5,393 nt of DNA, from NCBI GenBank assembly GCA_037147375.1, contig JBAWVI010000064.1:1-5393 (forward strand), in the 5' to 3' direction. The DNA is from an archaeon (lineage in GTDB: Archaea > Iainarchaeota > Iainarchaeia > Iainarchaeales > CSSED10-239). A program made the translations under genes and the position numbers. Each line of letters begins with the position of its first letter. Positions within the stretch are counted from its first letter, which is position 1. A model generated the notes under the pieces. It worked only from the letters and a program-made list of their open reading frames with translations. It was not told the DNA's origin and searched no databases. Positions 1 to 5,393 of the stretch are shown here, piece after piece.

Positions 1-3000
1 CAATACATTCAGAATACTTGTTTACTATTAAACTTAAATCAAGTTCTGATGCAAATTCTTCAACACCATTAACGTTTGCTCTTCTACTTGAAAAAGTAAC
101 TATAGGTTCAGATAAACCAGTTGATAACTTACCAGATTTAAATATAACTTTAATAACTTCTTCTTTATTTGCAACCATTGTATTTAATATTAATGTTTTA
201 TTATTAGGTTCAAGTATATAGTTTTTTGTTCCAACTTGTAATGAAACAACTCCAATTTCTTTTGAATTACCATAATCAATTTCTGCAAATATGTTTCCAA
301 GGTTAGCTGGTTCAGCAGATACAGTACATGTATTCTTAATCTTCATGCTTGCTTCTGTTGAAACATTTCCTTCTCCTCTAAGCTCTAGGCTTGCAGGAGT
401 TAATTGTAAACAATCAAGAGTATCAAGTGAGTTACCAAATCCAATTCTTACATCAACTGGAATCTTAGTTGTCCATTCTCTTTTTGTTTCAATATTTTCA
501 AGTGTAATAATTAAATCTGTTGAGAAAGTCTTTGCTGTCATTAAGTTAACTCCTTCATCAGTTACACTTGTTTTTAATGCATACTCAACACTTGATTGAC
601 TATCTAATATTTTATCTTCACCAATTAATTGCAATTTCACATACTTATTTTCTTTATTATACTTAACAGATGTGATTGCAAGTGGAAGTGTTGTATTATT
701 TACTAATACTATGTTTGATGTGGTTGTGTATTCAGTTGATAAATCTAAATATACAGAAACCTTTTCAGGTATTGTAGATATTAAGTTTGAACTAACTGTC
801 ATTGTTGTATCTATGTTTTTGTATCCTTCTTTTGTAATTAAAATTTGGATTACATCTCCTAAATCAGGAGCAGGAAGAACAAATCCATATTCTCCTTTAA
901 GGTTTGTTTGTCCAGTTACAATAACTTGCTTATTTATTTTCACAGTGATATCTGCTTTAGGTATTGCTTTATTATTATCATCTGTTAAAACCATGATTAT
1001 ATCATTTGGTACAAATGGAGTAATTGTTTGTGGTGCAATTTCAAAATTAATATTGTTTGATGGTTTAATATCCATAATAATTGATTTTGCAAATACTGTT
1101 TCGCTTGCAGATAATAAATTAAAATTTAAAACATCTGAATTATCATTTGTTATTGCAAATGAAATAACTCCGCTAATGTAATCATTAGCACCAATTGTTC
1201 CAAGCTCGATAGCATCAAGTTCTTTTCCAGTTAATAATCTTGATCCAACTCCTTCAATTGAATAATCCTTAAGTAAGATTGTGTTTCCATTTCCTGTTAC
1301 ATTAAGTGTAGCACCAGTAACTGGTCTTAAGAAATTAAGATTAAAATAAAGCTTATGAGCTGTATTTGATTTTGGACTATATTTATCAATAACATTCTTA
1401 GTAATCTTAGTTGATTCATTATACATATAGAAATTATAACATACTGTTGAATCACAAAAATTTGATTGACCAGTAAACACTTGTGCTTCTTTTGTGTATG
1501 CGTACAATGATTGCTTTGTTCCTGATGTACTGCTTTGTCCAAGTACTTCATCTTGTGGATATCTTAAAATATTTCCACCAGTATAATATTCAGCTCTGTA
1601 ATAAACAGGAACTGCAGTTGTTACTTGATCAGAAATTACAAGTGTTGCTTCAACTAAATAACTTCCAACCATAGGAGAATCAATAGTTACATTAAACCAT
1701 TTAGCATCTCTTGTTGTTTTGCTTGATAAATCAATTCCTTCTCCAAGACAAGGAGTGTATGAAACTGAACCTGAAATTTTACTTGTTCCAGCATTAATTT
1801 CCTTAATATAAACATCATCTTCTTCAAGTAAACGTGTTATTCCATCACATTTATTTCCAGCACCAGTTCTTATGTGTGCAACTGCTTTAGAATATGCCTT
1901 ATTTACATTTAATACAAATCTAGCTTTAACTGATTGACCTGGAGAAACAGATGTTACTTGATTTCCAGATGCATCATATAATCCAAGATATTCAATATTT
2001 GATGAGTTTGATACCTTTGGTAAAGTGAAATTTAATTTTAATGTATTGTTTGCTTCTTGTGAATATTTACCAGTAATAAACTTACTATCATAATTATTAA
2101 TAACAAAATAAACAACCTTATCAGCTCTAATTCTTATGATTGTAGAACCGTCAACACCAGTTGTTGTTCTTTTATTTTCAATTTCAGAATTATTATAAAG
2201 ATCATAAACTGCAATTTGTGTTGAAATTGGACTTGTTCCATCAGTTACTGTGATATTATATGTAACTTCTCCAATATCCATTCTTACTTGTATTTCAGTT
2301 AGTTCTCTTTCAACAATCATAAATGGACTTGAGGGTGTTGAAACATATTTACCTGAAACAGCATCAACCTTATATGTTTTTTCAGGATCTAAATTTGGAA
2401 TTATTACTTTACCAAATACATCTGTTATTCCTTCTTTAACAACTGTATTTGATTCCATATCCCATAATCTTACTGAAGCATATTCAACTGGTTGAACTTC
2501 TTTATCAACAACTGAAATCATTACTCCTCTAAATGTTTCTTGAGTAATTCTTTTTAATTTAATTGTTTGCACTGCATCATTCTTTCTAATTCCTACTTGT
2601 GTTTTAACAGTATAGTCTGAGTTATCAAAATTAATTGTGTACCCAATATCTTCTCTTATTCCAAAGTTAACAAAACCATCTGCATCTGTTTTAAAATTAG
2701 ATAATTTTACGTCTCCCTTGAATAAAGAAACTTCTACGTTTTCAATTGCAAGATTTGTTTCTAAATCTACAACTTTTAATTTAATTGTACCAATAATATC
2801 TTTTTTAATTTTAATTGCAGGAATAATATTTATTCCTTCAACTTCAACATCAACTTTGATTCCATCAGCTGGAATTATACCAGAATAAATTCCACTTGGA
2901 TCTCTAACGTTTACTGAATAAGTTCCAAGTTGAATTGCAGATAAATTAGCAATTCCATTTGCACTTGTTGTTCCTTCTCCAGCTAAGAATCCACTTCCGT

Positions 3001-3820
3001 TATATAAACTAACAACAACACCAGATACTGGTGTGCTAAGTTCATCATCAATAATTGAGATAGTAACGTCTCCTCTAGTTGCATCTCCTGCGGCTTCTAA
3101 ATAAATTTCTCCAGTTCTATTAAGATTATTAATTGTTAAATCTTTTTCTTCTACTGCACTTTGATTTGCAAGATTAACTTGTAATTCACCACAATCAGAA
3201 GGAACATTATCAAGTGTGTAGCTTCCATCTGTTACAATAAATGAATCTTTTTTATAAATAGAATTATTTGAACAAGTTATTGATTCAATTGCAATTGGTG
3301 TTAAGATTTGTTCACCAGTTACTTTGCTTTTGAAATAAATTGTTTTTGAATAAGCTGCAACTTTTTCAGATAAATAAATTGTAAATGATTTATCTGTGCT
3401 TGTTGGAGTTATTTCATTTGGAGTATCAATTAAATACTTTGATCCAATTAATGAAATTGAATAAAGACCATCTTCCATTCCTTTAATTCTAGCAACTCCT
3501 GAAGAATCAGTTGTTATTGATTTAATTGTTCCTGATAAATTAATATCAAGACTTTGATTAGAGATTACATTTTCTGAAGGATCCATGAAAGTTAAAATTA
3601 TGTCACTACTTGAAGCAGGATTAGTAAATTGTCCAGCAATAATTATTCCAAGCAAAACTAAAATAGCAAGAACAATTAGCAAGAATATAGCAAATGTTGG
3701 AATTCCACGTTTTTCAAGTGGGTCAACAATTTTGTATAAATTAATTCCCTTTTTCTCCATACGATCTAAGAAGTTAAAATATTTATCTTCTTGTTTATGA
3801 TAAAAAGACTTTAAACTCAT
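1..3820 (-). CDS. Giant cell-surface protein, N-terminally membrane-anchored, with repeated carboxypeptidase-regulatory-like/PEGA-like beta-sandwich modules. The 5' end is complete and the 3' end is off-window (more than 1273 aa).
   Basis: Hand-verified. Reading + strand triplets in register (positions = 2 mod 3) from 2 to 3826, there is no tta/cta/tca (reverse-complement stops). The first in-frame upstream stop is tca (TGA) at 3827..3829. The ATG is cat at 3818..3820. This gives 1273 sense codons plus 1 nt to the left edge. The protein starts MSLKSFYHKQEDKYFNFLDRMEKKGINLYKIVDPLEKRGIPTFAIFLLIVLAILVLLGIIIAGQFTNPASS and reads ...DLSLIVNKYSECI at the window edge. Codon bias is uniform over all 3.8 kb (A/T-ending; AGA Arg, TTA Leu, GGA Gly, ACA Thr, TCA Ser), and the translation contains repeated domain-like modules. 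It is not in the supplied ORF track, presumably because no stop lies inside the window. Confidence 0.88.
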   Translation of the reverse strand, partial: MSLKSFYHKQEDKYFNFLDRMEKKGINLYKIVDPLEKRGIPTFAIFLLIVLAILVLLGIIIAGQFTNPASSSDIILTFMDPSENVISNQSLDINLSGTIKSITTDSSGVARIKGMEDGLYSISLIGSKYLIDTPNEITPTSTDKSFTIYLSEKVAAYSKTIYFKSKVTGEQILTPIAIESITCSNNSIYKKDSFIVTDGSYTLDNVPSDCGELQVNLANQSAVEEKDLTINNLNRTGEIYLEAAGDATRGDVTISIIDDELSTPVSGVVVSLYNGSGFLAGEGTTSANGIANLSAIQLGTYSVNVRDPSGIYSGIIPADGIKVDVEVEGINIIPAIKIKKDIIGTIKLKVVDLETNLAIENVEVSLFKGDVKLSNFKTDADGFVNFGIREDIGYTINFDNSDYTVKTQVGIRKNDAVQTIKLKRITQETFRGVMISVVDKEVQPVEYASVRLWDMESNTVVKEGITDVFGKVIIPNLDPEKTYKVDAVSGKYVSTPSSPFMIVERELTEIQVRMDIGEVTYNITVTDGTSPISTQIAVYDLYNNSEIENKRTTTGVDGSTIIRIRADKVVYFVINNYDSKFITGKYSQEANNTLKLNFTLPKVSNSSNIEYLGLYDASGNQVTSVSPGQSVKARFVLNVNKAYSKAVAHIRTGAGNKCDGITRLLEEDDVYIKEINAGTSKISGSVSYTPCLGEGIDLSSKTTRDAKWFNVTIDSPMVGSYLVEATLVISDQVTTAVPVYYRAEYYTGGNILRYPQDEVLGQSSTSGTKQSLYAYTKEAQVFTGQSNFCDSTVCYNFYMYNESTKITKNVIDKYSPKSNTAHKLYFNLNFLRPVTGATLNVTGNGNTILLKDYSIEGVGSRLLTGKELDAIELGTIGANDYISGVISFAITNDNSDVLNFNLLSASETVFAKSIIMDIKPSNNINFEIAPQTITPFVPNDIIMVLTDDNNKAIPKADITVKINKQVIVTGQTNLKGEYGFVLPAPDLGDVIQILITKEGYKNIDTTMTVSSNLISTIPEKVSVYLDLSTEYTTTSNIVLVNNTTLPLAITSVKYNKENKYVKLQLIGEDKILDSQSSVEYALKTSVTDEGVNLMTAKTFSTDLIITLENIETKREWTTKIPVDVRIGFGNSLDTLDCLQLTPASLELRGEGNVSTEASMKIKNTCTVSAEPANLGNIFAEIDYGNSKEIGVVSLQVGTKNYILEPNNKTLILNTMVANKEEVIKVIFKSGKLSTGLSEPIVTFSSRRANVNGVEEFASELDLSLIVNKYSECI
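794..1003 (-). other. Isolated PEGA/CarboxypepD_reg-like module of gene A (aa 940-1009)
   Basis: The sequence is DIIMVLTDDNNKAIPKADITVKINKQVIVTGQTNLKGEYGFVLPAPDLGDVIQILITKEGYKNIDTTMTV. The ending 'I-x-I-T-K-E-G-Y-K-x-x-x-x-x-x-T-V' is typical of PEGA-type modules. Motif recognition only. Confidence 0.5.
2552..2566 (-). repeat. Exact 15-nt coding repeat ACAATTAAATTAAAA (TIKLK), copy 2
   Basis: The + strand ttttaatttaattgt at 2552..2566 lies 222 nt (74 codons) from copy 1. It encodes residues 419-423, just before the next module. Confidence 0.9.
2774..2788 (-). repeat. Exact 15-nt coding repeat ACAATTAAATTAAAA (TIKLK), copy 1
   Basis: The + strand ttttaatttaattgt at 2774..2788 is identical to 2552..2566. 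It encodes residues 345-349 at the start of a beta-sandwich module. Confidence 0.9.
3632..3700 (-). other. Single transmembrane segment (signal-anchor) of gene A, residues 41-63 PTFAIFLLIVLAILVLLGIIIAG
   Basis: This is the only long uninterrupted hydrophobic stretch in the 1273 translated residues. It is preceded by a charged 40-aa segment ending in EKRG, consistent with positive-inside, N-in/C-out topology. It is followed by Ser/Thr/Asn-rich sequence. Confidence 0.7.
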
Positions 3821-3831
3821 ATCCCTTCATA

Positions 3832-3837
3832 TCCTCT
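3832..3837 (-). promoter_or_regulatory. Possible ribosome-binding site AGAGGA for gene A
   Basis: The + strand tcctct at 3832..3837 is AGAGGA on the coding strand. The GAGG core lies about 12 nt upstream of the ATG, which is slightly long spacing. A second purine patch AAGGG (3823..3827) lies too close to the ATG. Confidence 0.3.
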
Positions 3838-3851
3838 AATATAGGTTATAT

Positions 3852-3885
3852 TATATATATATAAGATAATGATTATATTTATAAA
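3852..3885 (-). promoter_or_regulatory. Candidate promoter core for gene A: TTTATAAATA (3885..3876, -65 from ATG) and CTTATATATATATAA with (TA)6 (3863..3852, -43..-32)
   Basis: The minus-strand sequence upstream of the ATG reads AACTTTATAAATATAATCATTATCTTATATATATATAATATAACCTATATTAGAGGATATGAAGGGATATG. Both elements resemble an archaeal TATA box (TTTAWATA) and also contain bacterial -10-like TATAAT. In DNA this AT-rich such matches are expected by chance, and no transcription start site can be placed. Confidence 0.3.
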
Positions 3886-3919
3886 GTTAATCTTTAGTGA
3901 ACTAATTAAAAGGCTAACC

Positions 3920-3933
3920 ATATATTAATATAT
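3920..3933. repeat. Perfect 14-bp palindrome ATATATTAATATAT
   Basis: Read directly; the sequence is its own reverse complement. It lies in the intergenic spacer, centred about 106 bp upstream of the gene A ATG. Confidence 0.9.
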
Positions 3934-3938
3934 TGTTC

Positions 3939-3958
3939 ATATATCTTTATATATCTTT
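3939..3958. repeat. Perfect tandem duplication of a 10-mer: atatatcttt atatatcttt
   Basis: Read directly: 3939..3948 and 3949..3958 are identical. On the gene strand this is AAAGATATAT x2, i.e. two adjacent TATA-like elements about -120 to -138 from the gene A ATG. Confidence 0.9.
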
Positions 3959-3973
3959 TTATTACAGTTAAGG

Positions 3974-3988
3974 AGTTAATTATTAACT
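3974..3988. repeat. Inverted repeat AGTTAAT-t-ATTAACT (7-bp arms, 1-nt spacer)
   Basis: Read directly. The heptamer AGTTAAT also occurs at 3885..3891. This could be a weak hairpin in the gene B 3' UTR or a dyad binding site. Confidence 0.85.
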
Positions 3989-4006
3989 TCTTTAAATATT
4001 TTCAAT

Positions 4007-4011
4007 AAAAA
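4007..4011 (-). terminator. Oligo-T (T5) tract 9 nt after the gene B stop codon; possible archaeal-type termination signal
   Basis: The minus strand after the stop reads TAA AATCATAG TTTTT ATTGAAAATATTTAAAGAAGTTAATAATTAACTCC. A weak AT-rich inverted repeat follows at 3974..3988. T5 runs are common in AT-rich DNA, so this is weak evidence. Confidence 0.2.
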
Positions 4012-4019
4012 CTATGATT

Positions 4020-5393
4020 TTATGGACTTATACATCCTGGTTGAACTGAATTGTTTGGATCTCCATAACTATTACACTTCCAAAGATTTGTAACTCCATT
4101 TGGTGACATATTTCCAGGAGGATAAGGTTCAATATAACCTGTTGAATTAGCAAGATTAGAATTTAATGATGCTTCACTAGGCAATGTAAATTCAGTATAA
4201 GCATCAACTATTTTAATGTATGTTTTTGGTTCAGTATTTGAAATTGAATATTTTGGATTTGTTTCCTTAAAAACTAAACTCAATTGTATTCCTTCTGAAC
4301 TTAATTCAAAACACTTAAGATTTAGATTATCTGGATTTTCATTAAAATATAATTGATTATAGAGTGGATCAGAAATTATTTCATTTGGATAAACTGATCT
4401 TCCTGCTACTGAATCATAAAATATTCCAAGTCCACCAGCACTTTCTCTAGTGGAGTTTGGATCTGCAGGTTCAAAAACCTTAGATGGAAAATAGTAATTA
4501 ATAGCTGGAGCTGGATCTCCATATTTATTTACGTCTTTTGTAATTCTTCCAAGTCCAAAGTACACATCAATTAAATCAATTGTAACTGGTTTTAATGGAT
4601 TTATTCCTGTGTAACCTGCTGCATTTAGCCCATCTGTTGTCATCTCAAGAGATTTTGTAAAAGTTATGTTTTCTGAATTTTCTCTATCATTTAAATTTTG
4701 TTTAATTGTTTCTTTAACAAGAGAATCAAAGAGAGATTCATATCCTGATGGAAGATCACCAATTTTATAAGAAATTGCAGGAGCAATTATTACTGAATTA
4801 CCAGCTGTGACCTGATCTGCAGGACCAGTAACTTGAAAAGGAATATTACATTGTTGTGCAAAACCATTTGAAGATGATGTTGCAAAGAAACTTGTTCTTG
4901 GACCACAAGTTCCTGGATCACACACACCAAGCCTTGCTTGTTCAAGAGTGTTGTGAAGTAAAGGATTGAATAATCCTGAATCACTGCTTGATGGAAAATC
5001 AGCAGGATTAAAGGATATTTCTCTATCAGGAGAATATGCAATTCTTCTTGCAACACGCATAGCTTGAAATCCTCTCCAAGGCATATAAATCTTATAATAT
5101 TGACGAGCAAGAACTGGCCGCTGCATAACCTCATTATTTCTTTCTCTCTTAACAGTTATGGTTGGTAACTTTTCATACTCTTCATCAGATAATGGAATAG
5201 TATTAAATGTTAAATAAAAGGAACCATTACAATTTTCTATATTACTTTGATTACAATCAACAACATCAATTTTATTTCCTGCTTCTTTAAACATTGATTC
5301 AACAACAGTTGCAAGTGCATTCTCATCAGAATTATTCCCACTACCACTTACTTCAATTTTATAACCAATCACTTCTGGAGTATAAGTTAATTT
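4020..5393 (-). CDS. Hypothetical cysteine-paired, probably secreted/extracellular protein. The 5' end is open to the window edge (C-terminal 457 codons plus stop).
   Basis: The track ORF 4020..5372 (450 aa) stays open for 7 more codons (KLTYTPE) up to position 5393. The stop TAA is tta at 4020..4022. No Shine-Dalgarno-like sequence precedes GTG 5372 or the first internal ATG. Codon usage is like gene A. The product has 8 Cys, is Pro/Gly/Asn/Ser-rich, and has no hydrophobic C-terminal anchor (it ends ...NSYGDPNNSVQPGCISP). Confidence 0.8.
   Translation of the reverse strand, partial: KLTYTPEVIGYKIEVSGSGNNSDENALATVVESMFKEAGNKIDVVDCNQSNIENCNGSFYLTFNTIPLSDEEYEKLPTITVKRERNNEVMQRPVLARQYYKIYMPWRGFQAMRVARRIAYSPDREISFNPADFPSSSDSGLFNPLLHNTLEQARLGVCDPGTCGPRTSFFATSSSNGFAQQCNIPFQVTGPADQVTAGNSVIIAPAISYKIGDLPSGYESLFDSLVKETIKQNLNDRENSENITFTKSLEMTTDGLNAAGYTGINPLKPVTIDLIDVYFGLGRITKDVNKYGDPAPAINYYFPSKVFEPADPNSTRESAGGLGIFYDSVAGRSVYPNEIISDPLYNQLYFNENPDNLNLKCFELSSEGIQLSLVFKETNPKYSISNTEPKTYIKIVDAYTEFTLPSEASLNSNLANSTGYIEPYPPGNMSPNGVTNLWKCNSYGDPNNSVQPGCISP

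Follow-up and report, generated by a model that had tools for sequence, protein, structure and literature searches.

What kind of protein is encoded by the open frame that fills most of this archaeal contig and runs off its left end, and what might a cell with a tiny genome use it for? The window, by which we mean the whole stretch of 5,393 nucleotides (nt) analysed here (contig JBAWVI010000064.1 of assembly GCA_037147375.1), comes from a member of the Iainarchaeota, and its minus strand carries the 5' part of a gene here called giant B, which belongs to a conserved cluster that also encodes the paralogous giants A and C. Our preferred reading, to which we assign a probability of about 60%, is that giant B is a truncated gene for a membrane-anchored Iainarchaeota surface protein, built as a type II anchored stalk with a variable distal half for contact. 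The parts of the gene within the window, with positions in amino acids (aa) counted from the start codon, are the following.

2..3820, minus strand: partial giant B gene, codons 1-1273, with no stop and running off the left edge
3827..3829, minus strand: stop codon TGA (tca on the plus strand), two codons 5' of the ATG, closing the frame
3695..3820, minus strand: putative cytoplasmic head, aa 1-42, with the motif MSLKSFYHKQEDKYFNFLDRMEKKGINLYKIVDPLEKRGIPT, from conservation across orthologues
3632..3694, minus strand: single transmembrane helix, aa 43-63 (FAIFLLIVLAILVLLGIIIAG), from hydropathy
2036..3625, minus strand: about six membrane-proximal beta-sandwich modules, aa 66-595, from Pfam
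1031..2035, minus strand: signature module, aa 596-930, family-specific and beta-rich, from alignment A6
2..1030, minus strand: further beta-sandwich modules, aa 931-1273, from an AlphaFold2 (AF2) model and a Pfam fragment scan

The gene is real. A sequence-only reading of the window had proposed a single minus-strand frame, absent from the list of open reading frames (ORFs), and its coordinates proved exact on retranslation: the frame is open over 2..3826, its ATG lies at 3820..3818, and tca occupies 3827..3829. On the minus strand, 2..3829 reads as a stop followed by RDM..., with 1273 stop-free codons from the ATG, and the in-frame stop that had been named as the refuting observation does not occur. 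The seven plus-strand ORFs between 18 and 3800, taken in that reading for antisense shadows, are all present and short (63-169 aa). The frame is indeed unlisted, but this is a trivial property of the tool and no biological oddity, because the ORF lister omits ORFs that run off a source end. At approximately 29% GC, base composition predicts 8.75% stop codons, so that 1275 codons in a row would stay open by chance with a probability of about 2e-51; in the other five frames the longest such runs measure 53-457 codons, the run of 457 being the pilin-like gene described below. An independently assembled contig (L003, ENA ERZ4201038) matches the window with 99.2% identity over 5049 nt and zero indels, and within giant B the two differ by 29 synonymous and 10 non-synonymous substitutions, 29 of the 39 at third codon positions, giving a ratio of non-synonymous to synonymous substitution rates (dN/dS) of about 0.10. 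The gene is under purifying selection. Orthologues open with MSLK or MGLK at the equivalent aligned position, which supports the start codon. In favour of a chance feature or an assembly artefact there is the short contig, both of whose genes are truncated, and nothing further; because of the indel-free identity to L003 and the dN/dS of about 0.10 this explanation is excluded, and hundreds of homologues with the same architecture, together with the probability given above, also speak against it. Separately, the differences between the window and L003 are unevenly spread, with 39 in 3711 nt of giant B (1.05%) and 3 in 1338 nt of the pilin-like gene and spacer (0.22%). The terminal 47 nt of L003 (5050..5096) are unrelated, GC-rich and resemble an adapter or chimera; they add a false stop, through which the database protein P0001 (1232 aa) falsely looks C-terminally complete.

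The claim that the frame is one gene continuing past the left edge was likewise borne out, and its relatives indicate how far it would continue. The closest, P0004, is 84% identical and 2348 aa long, and of two JGI relatives one (L026, 86% identical) is complete at 2398 aa and the other (L025, 84% identical) is cut by a contig end. Since orthologues at 83-86% identity span 2348-2398 aa, against 1273 in the window, the full length of giant B is predicted to be approximately 2350-2400 aa, with some 1075-1125 C-terminal codons lying beyond the window. The window DNA itself has no exact match in viral or metagenome collections. In an exhaustive HMMER search (phmmer), aa 560-1273 matched 331 clusters at E<=0.001, 151 of them at E<=1e-30, and in nearly all 331 the match fell at about residues 550-1280, most of them being proteins of 2.2-2.7 thousand residues; word-indexed protein searches returned only 3, 1 and 7 matches, the 7 obtained with the head motif being truncated gene calls. 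With each GTDB species represented by one genome, a scan yielded 16 loci, all in archaeal metagenome-assembled genomes of 26-33% GC and 37-40% identical to giant B across all 1273 residues, among them the complete 839,632-bp genome of Candidatus (Ca.) Forterrea multitransposorum. Half of these loci (8/16) are titled Iainarchaeum, ainarchaeum, Diapherotrites or Forterrea, and the remaining 8/16 only 'archaeon' or 'uncultured archaeon'; one more distant family member is named Ca. Diapherotrites, and every organism carrying the family that could be named belongs to the Iainarchaeota/Diapherotrites. The suspicion of an AT-rich, uncultivated and poorly annotated lineage was thus well placed: the lineage is the DPANN phylum Iainarchaeota, and the public records are unnamed or labelled 'carboxypeptidase regulatory-like domain-containing protein'.

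The N-terminus holds the most conserved part of the protein. Identity across Iainarchaeota orthologues is 72% for aa 1-40 and 68% for aa 1-42, and aa 1-63 of the window protein align gap-free with all orthologues. The head motif has the consensus Y..LEDKY[YF].FLD.L..KGIPVYK.VD.IE...IPSF, or, in a form that differs at a few positions, Y..LEDKY[YF].FLD.L..KGI..YK.VD.[IL]E..GIP[ST]F, and lies directly before the transmembrane helix; it is present in 93 of the 114 full-length family members, is common to the paralogous giants A and C, and is also carried by the extra giant paralogues of distant relatives, while no Pfam or NCBIfam model matches it. On the Kyte-Doolittle scale, aa 43-63 contain the sole 19-residue windows of the window protein that exceed a mean hydropathy of 1.6 (maximum 3.5, next best 1.25), in agreement with the single N-terminal anchor that had been proposed. 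The head is hydrophilic, with 9 Lys+Arg and 6 Asp+Glu; because its 9 positive charges stand before the helix and none occur in the 17 residues after it, the positive-inside bias predicts a type II (N-in) signal anchor. The most likely function of the shared head motif is to target, insert or cluster all of the giants via a common partner. In distant relatives, small multi-transmembrane proteins (~93-160 aa) are encoded between or after the giants (L022 17708..18187; L023 9466..9918 and 24762..26915), and these are candidate membrane partners for the motif.

Beyond the helix the window protein is a chain of beta-sandwich modules, as the sequence-only reading had anticipated in calling the ectodomain modular. 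Pfam scans of the whole window protein and of its fragments matched CarboxypepD_reg, SpaA, SdrD_B or bMG3-type families, whose folds are without exception prealbumin-like or immunoglobulin-like sandwiches, at about aa 80-139, 256-308, 345-416 and 436-514, with a further CarboxypepD_reg-like stretch at about aa 945-1010. PF13620 (CarboxypepD_reg) scores 82.2 bits (cut-off 32.3) in five stretches and matches all 18 of the diverse full-length members scanned, in which Pfam found nothing except families with an immunoglobulin (Ig)-like fold; bMG3 (45.4 bits, cut-off 34.9) falls on a stretch that SpaA, SdrD_B and CarboxypepD_reg match as well. The signature module (aa 596-930) is the best-conserved part of the ectodomain, with 42-58% identity per 40-residue block over aa 601-800. 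Across members that are 24-31% identical overall, G628, H649, R651, G653, D668, K707, W708, R742, D757, L772, Y773, C789, C794 and Y853 are invariant, and the module matches no Pfam family and, as a profile, no PDB sequence even at E<=10. The modules that follow the stretch at ~945-1010 resemble Ig/ASH/PapD-like sandwiches and carry the conserved pair Cys1137-Cys1165. An AF2 model of aa 560-1273 is entirely beta, with a mean predicted local distance difference test score (pLDDT) of 70.8, and is good at aa ~920-1270, where model residues 360-710 have block pLDDT values of ~66-92, mostly 80-92. Foldseek of this model against the PDB gave generic multi-Ig strings only (hydin/ASH, integrin legs, macroglobulin (MG) domains), with template-modelling (TM) scores of at most 0.22 among the top matches, and a PDB sequence search with the family profile gave weak repeat-domain matches only, the best being NOMO2 (9c7v_B, E 9.6e-5). 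All nine cysteines of the window protein are invariant in an alignment with P0002 and P0003, and most form close pairs (183/210, 658/691, 789/794, 1137/1165), which fits an extracellular, disulfide-stabilised protein. The number of N-X-S/T sequons is about that expected from composition. As an aside on the cysteines, Cys658/Cys691 of the signature module (nt ~1748-1849) occur only in AT-rich close relatives and are missing from distant members, whereas Cys789/Cys794 are invariant.

The half of the protein that lies past the window was followed in orthologues, in which aa 1273 is succeeded by an N/Y/G-rich linker, more sandwiches and a Cys-rich alpha/beta region. From the 68% of the head, identity among Iainarchaeota orthologues falls to 37%, nearly gapless, over aa 64-1273 and to 24% past that point, where as many as 45% of positions are gapped. 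Giants B and C are paralogous over aa 1-1275 (23% identity, E 4e-33), the span that is in the window, and diverge afterwards. An AF2 model of the distal region, built on 35 sequences, has a mean pLDDT of 71, and Foldseek of both AF2 models against the PDB and BFVD retrieved nothing beyond generic Ig-like strings, with no informative match for the alpha/beta part of the distal region. Two local features of this half may be recorded here. The linker of P0004 (L020), at aa ~1275-1420, is of low complexity, with N, Y, G and S abundant over its ~150 residues; gaps between the orthologues are densest here, and the window stops just short of it. Further on, P0004 carries the motif C-x6-YCD-x-x-Q at aa 1907-1918; the exact pattern occurs in 42 of the 114 full-length members, its two Cys, its Asp and its Gln are invariant in 18 diverse aligned members (alignment A4), and it is distinct from the thioester motif of alpha-2-macroglobulin.

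These features can be assembled into the working picture that we prefer, of giant B as a type II (N-in) anchored rod. The membrane-proximal half, conserved and indel-free and corresponding to the part in the window, would act as a stalk; with textbook sizes for Ig-like domains, a length of a few tens of nanometres would follow from its 10-12 sandwich modules. Such a stalk may hold the fast-evolving, indel-rich distal half away from the cell, where the linker, the sandwiches and the Cys-rich alpha/beta head would contact other cells or surfaces, and a common partner could take hold of the giants by the cytoplasmic head so as to target, insert or cluster them. A role in contact agrees with the proposal of Probst and Banfield (PMC5905446) for the corresponding cluster of Forterrea.

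The neighbourhood of giant B is conserved along with the protein, and within the window it comprises two further features.

4020..5393, minus strand: pilin-like gene, its C-terminal 457 codons, with the stop at 4020..4022 and the frame open to the right edge
3821..4019, minus strand: AT-rich spacer of 199 bp between the pilin-like gene and giant B

In every related contig that is sufficiently long, the order is giant A (~2650 aa), the pilin-like gene (~560-605 aa), giant B, giant C (~1600-1900 aa) and a secreted protein (~400-620 aa), all co-oriented and separated by short spacers, and the pilin-like gene stands directly 5' of giant B on the same strand in at least 16 related loci that reach far enough upstream. 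More distant relatives (GC 37-44%) have at least four giants together with the pilin-like gene and the small multi-transmembrane proteins. In the ORF list the pilin-like gene appears as 4020..5372, a 450-aa ORF with a GTG start and the second-largest entry; because the frame is open to 5393, the GTG at 5372 is not its true start. In L002 the gene next to the giant on its 5' side encodes a 608-aa protein, and the fragment matches residues 154-608 of it (27% identity, E 2e-44). The complete protein is predicted to have roughly 590 aa, and as orthologues are 554-608 aa long, the window copy is without some 130-150 N-terminal residues. In orthologues that N-terminus carries a prepilin-like (class III) signal: the opening M..[KR]G-F[TNS]LFTAL leads into a hydrophobic helix, and the [KR][GA] site and helix are present in 14/14 orthologues examined. 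Matches of the N-terminus to the minor pilins ComGF and ComGE are sub-threshold (E 0.006-0.03; 16.9 bits against a cut-off of 80 and 14.5 against 49, respectively, in the curated models). No Pfam pilin family matches the pilin-like protein, and, those sub-threshold matches aside, neither Pfam nor NCBIfam matches it or the fifth gene of the cluster.

Several points weigh against our reading of giant B as a stalk with a contact tip. The constancy of cluster order, length and stalk sequence throughout the phylum would suit a core envelope component equally well. Searches of both halves with Pfam, NCBIfam, the PDB and Foldseek brought up no recognised adhesin, lectin, enzymatic or S-layer (surface layer) domain and none known to bind a ligand; the structural models reach a moderate mean pLDDT of 71 and are poor at aa ~685-920, inside the signature module; and the topology, the uncleaved signal, glycosylation and co-transcription are predictions only. 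The Iainarchaeota also have no known host, and earlier work, cited in PMC5905446, suggested that they are free-living. The main rival, which we regard as possible if somewhat unlikely, draws on the same constancy and takes the giants to be core envelope components, an S-layer-like canopy or spacer of long anchored stalks and not partner-specific adhesins, comparable in principle to the stalked S-layers of archaea and the NOMO rods of the eukaryotic endoplasmic reticulum (ER). Gene order, protein length and domain positions are kept across 16 species genomes and in the distant relatives; the cluster occupies ~5% of the Forterrea genome (PMC5905446), an outlay typical of major structural components; and the strong purifying selection, the indel-free stalk and the choice of NOMO2, a membrane-anchored prealbumin-like rod, as best PDB match of the family profile all favour it. 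Yet the fast-evolving, indel-rich distal half is more typical of interaction surfaces, and no S-layer family of Pfam or NCBIfam was matched in the window protein, nor any S-layer family of Pfam in the 18 members. The giants are, moreover, anchored N-terminally, whereas the archaeal S-layer proteins known so far are usually anchored at the C-terminus.

The constant pilin-like neighbour raises a different prospect, that the giants and the pilin-like protein form one organelle related to type IV pili, in which a prepilin peptidase processes the pilin-like protein and this assembles with or docks onto the giants. A gene with a prepilin-like N-terminus always immediately upstream of giant B, and the faint resemblance to ComGF and ComGE, speak for such an organelle; the pilin matches nevertheless lie far under the curated cut-offs, the giants themselves are without a class III signal, and no pilus ATPase, platform protein or prepilin peptidase is encoded within 10 kb at any locus. 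Class III signals also occur on archaeal surface proteins that are not part of pili (see PMC4858521), and we consider this explanation distinctly improbable. A related conjecture, rather unlikely in our estimate, is that the head motif is a dedicated archaeal sorting or assembly signal, for which the extended signals of the bacterial YSIRK or ESPR type are the proposed functional counterpart, and that a common cytoplasmic or membrane partner reads it to co-assemble the giants and the pilin-like protein into an undescribed surface organelle used by Iainarchaeota for contact with other cells. Finally, the bMG3 match, which recurs in 17 of the 18 members, an MG4 Pfam match, and Foldseek matches that include bacterial and animal alpha-2-macroglobulins, complement C3/C5 and CD109 could be taken to mean that giant B is a membrane-anchored, alpha-2-macroglobulin-like protease trap. 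This is exceedingly improbable: the TM-scores of 0.13-0.2 are expected of any string of beta-sandwiches, the C-terminal model has no alpha-2-macroglobulin-specific match, no thioester (TED), A2M, CUB or receptor-binding Pfam family was matched in the 18 members, and the thioester motif C[GA]EQ occurs in 0/114 full-length members. With neither motif nor thioester domain, the trap was rejected as a candidate.

Giant B has precedents, of which the nearest comes from the same phylum. In Ca. Forterrea multitransposorum, Probst and Banfield (2018, PMC5905446) noted that a 42-kb region, ~5% of the genome, encodes five large membrane-anchored proteins of >1,800 aa each, and proposed for them a role in cell-cell interaction. 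Giant B is 39% identical over 1273 residues to a gene of that genome (CP045477.1 233298-257101, L006) and shares its N-terminal anchor. The neighbours agree as well, the Forterrea proteins measuring 2671 aa (giant A), 559 (pilin-like), 2323 (giant B) and 1867 (giant C). At 37-40% identity Forterrea represents a separate genus-level lineage. The gene is therefore real but not new, a truncated orthologue in an already noticed, barely described class of giant membrane-anchored proteins of DPANN archaea. The description in PMC5905446 consists of one sentence and a cartoon, in which head motif, signature module, pilin-like neighbour and synteny across the phylum do not figure. The searchable literature gave no description of the head motif or of the giant B family beyond that remark, nor does it describe the gradient from stalk to tip, the constancy of the pilin-like neighbour or the invariant polar positions of the signature module.

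Other likenesses are looser. The bacterial giant adhesins SiiE, MpIBP, PrgB, antigen I/II and Embp, which are among the Foldseek matches, are very long beta-sandwich rods with a distal binding region, but they have no sequence kinship with giant B beyond the generic fold, they use type I secretion systems, sortase or autotransporter routes where giant B has a signal anchor at its N-terminus, preceded by a long and conserved head in the cytoplasm, and their near-identical tandem repeats contrast with its diverged modules. NOMO, a subunit of the BOS complex, likewise consists of prealbumin/CarboxypepD_reg-like domains strung into a membrane-anchored rod, but its match to the family profile is weak and confined to repeat domains, and it has neither head motif nor signature module. 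As a type I protein of the ER it is anchored C-terminally, unlike giant B. Another DPANN group, the Nanohaloarchaeota, has giant surface proteins implicated in host contact, the SPEARE proteins, whose defining domains are of the serine protease, adhesion and restriction-endonuclease types. Scans of the window protein and of the 18 full-length members brought up no protease or endonuclease family. The Giant1-5 proteins of Apilactobacillus kunkeei (PMC12863079) resemble the cluster in being encoded by consecutive genes for very large extracellular proteins that take up ~5-6% of a small symbiont genome; they are bacterial, unrelated in sequence and 3000-8000 aa long, and the organisation of the genome is the only likeness.

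The attachment of DPANN archaea with minimal metabolism to other cells, and their exploitation of them, is largely unknown, and the Iainarchaeota are without a cultured representative. In their tiny genomes the giant cluster is the largest conserved investment in the cell surface, a share (~5% in Forterrea) that makes the giants obvious candidates for a contact apparatus or for the envelope. The window alone contributes just one more truncated orthologue, while the head motif, the signature module with its invariant residues, the constant pilin-like neighbour and the gradient from conserved stalk to variable tip offer handles for experiments and annotation.

In relatives with flanking proteins that are only 83-86% identical, the spacer between the pilin-like gene and giant B retains a mean column identity of 85%, which suggests a constrained regulatory sequence. 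It contains a TATA-like element, TTTATAAA, at 3885..3878, 58-65 nt 5' of the ATG, which may serve as a promoter, and GAGG at 3836..3833, 13 nt 5' of the ATG, a putative ribosome-binding site. A scan for bacterial-type promoters did no better on the spacer than on shuffled sequence, no terminator was found, and there was no Rfam match. The sole tandem repeat found is an imperfect AT-rich repeat of 22 nt at 3850..3891. Elsewhere in the cluster, L014 has an extra gene of 433 aa (6708..8009) between giant A and the pilin-like gene, and in L012 an antisense ORF (15863..16519, minus strand) encodes a repeating peptide (HRLHIHEYQNMQEYKHLLQLL) that points to a tandem DNA repeat in the 3' part of giant C.

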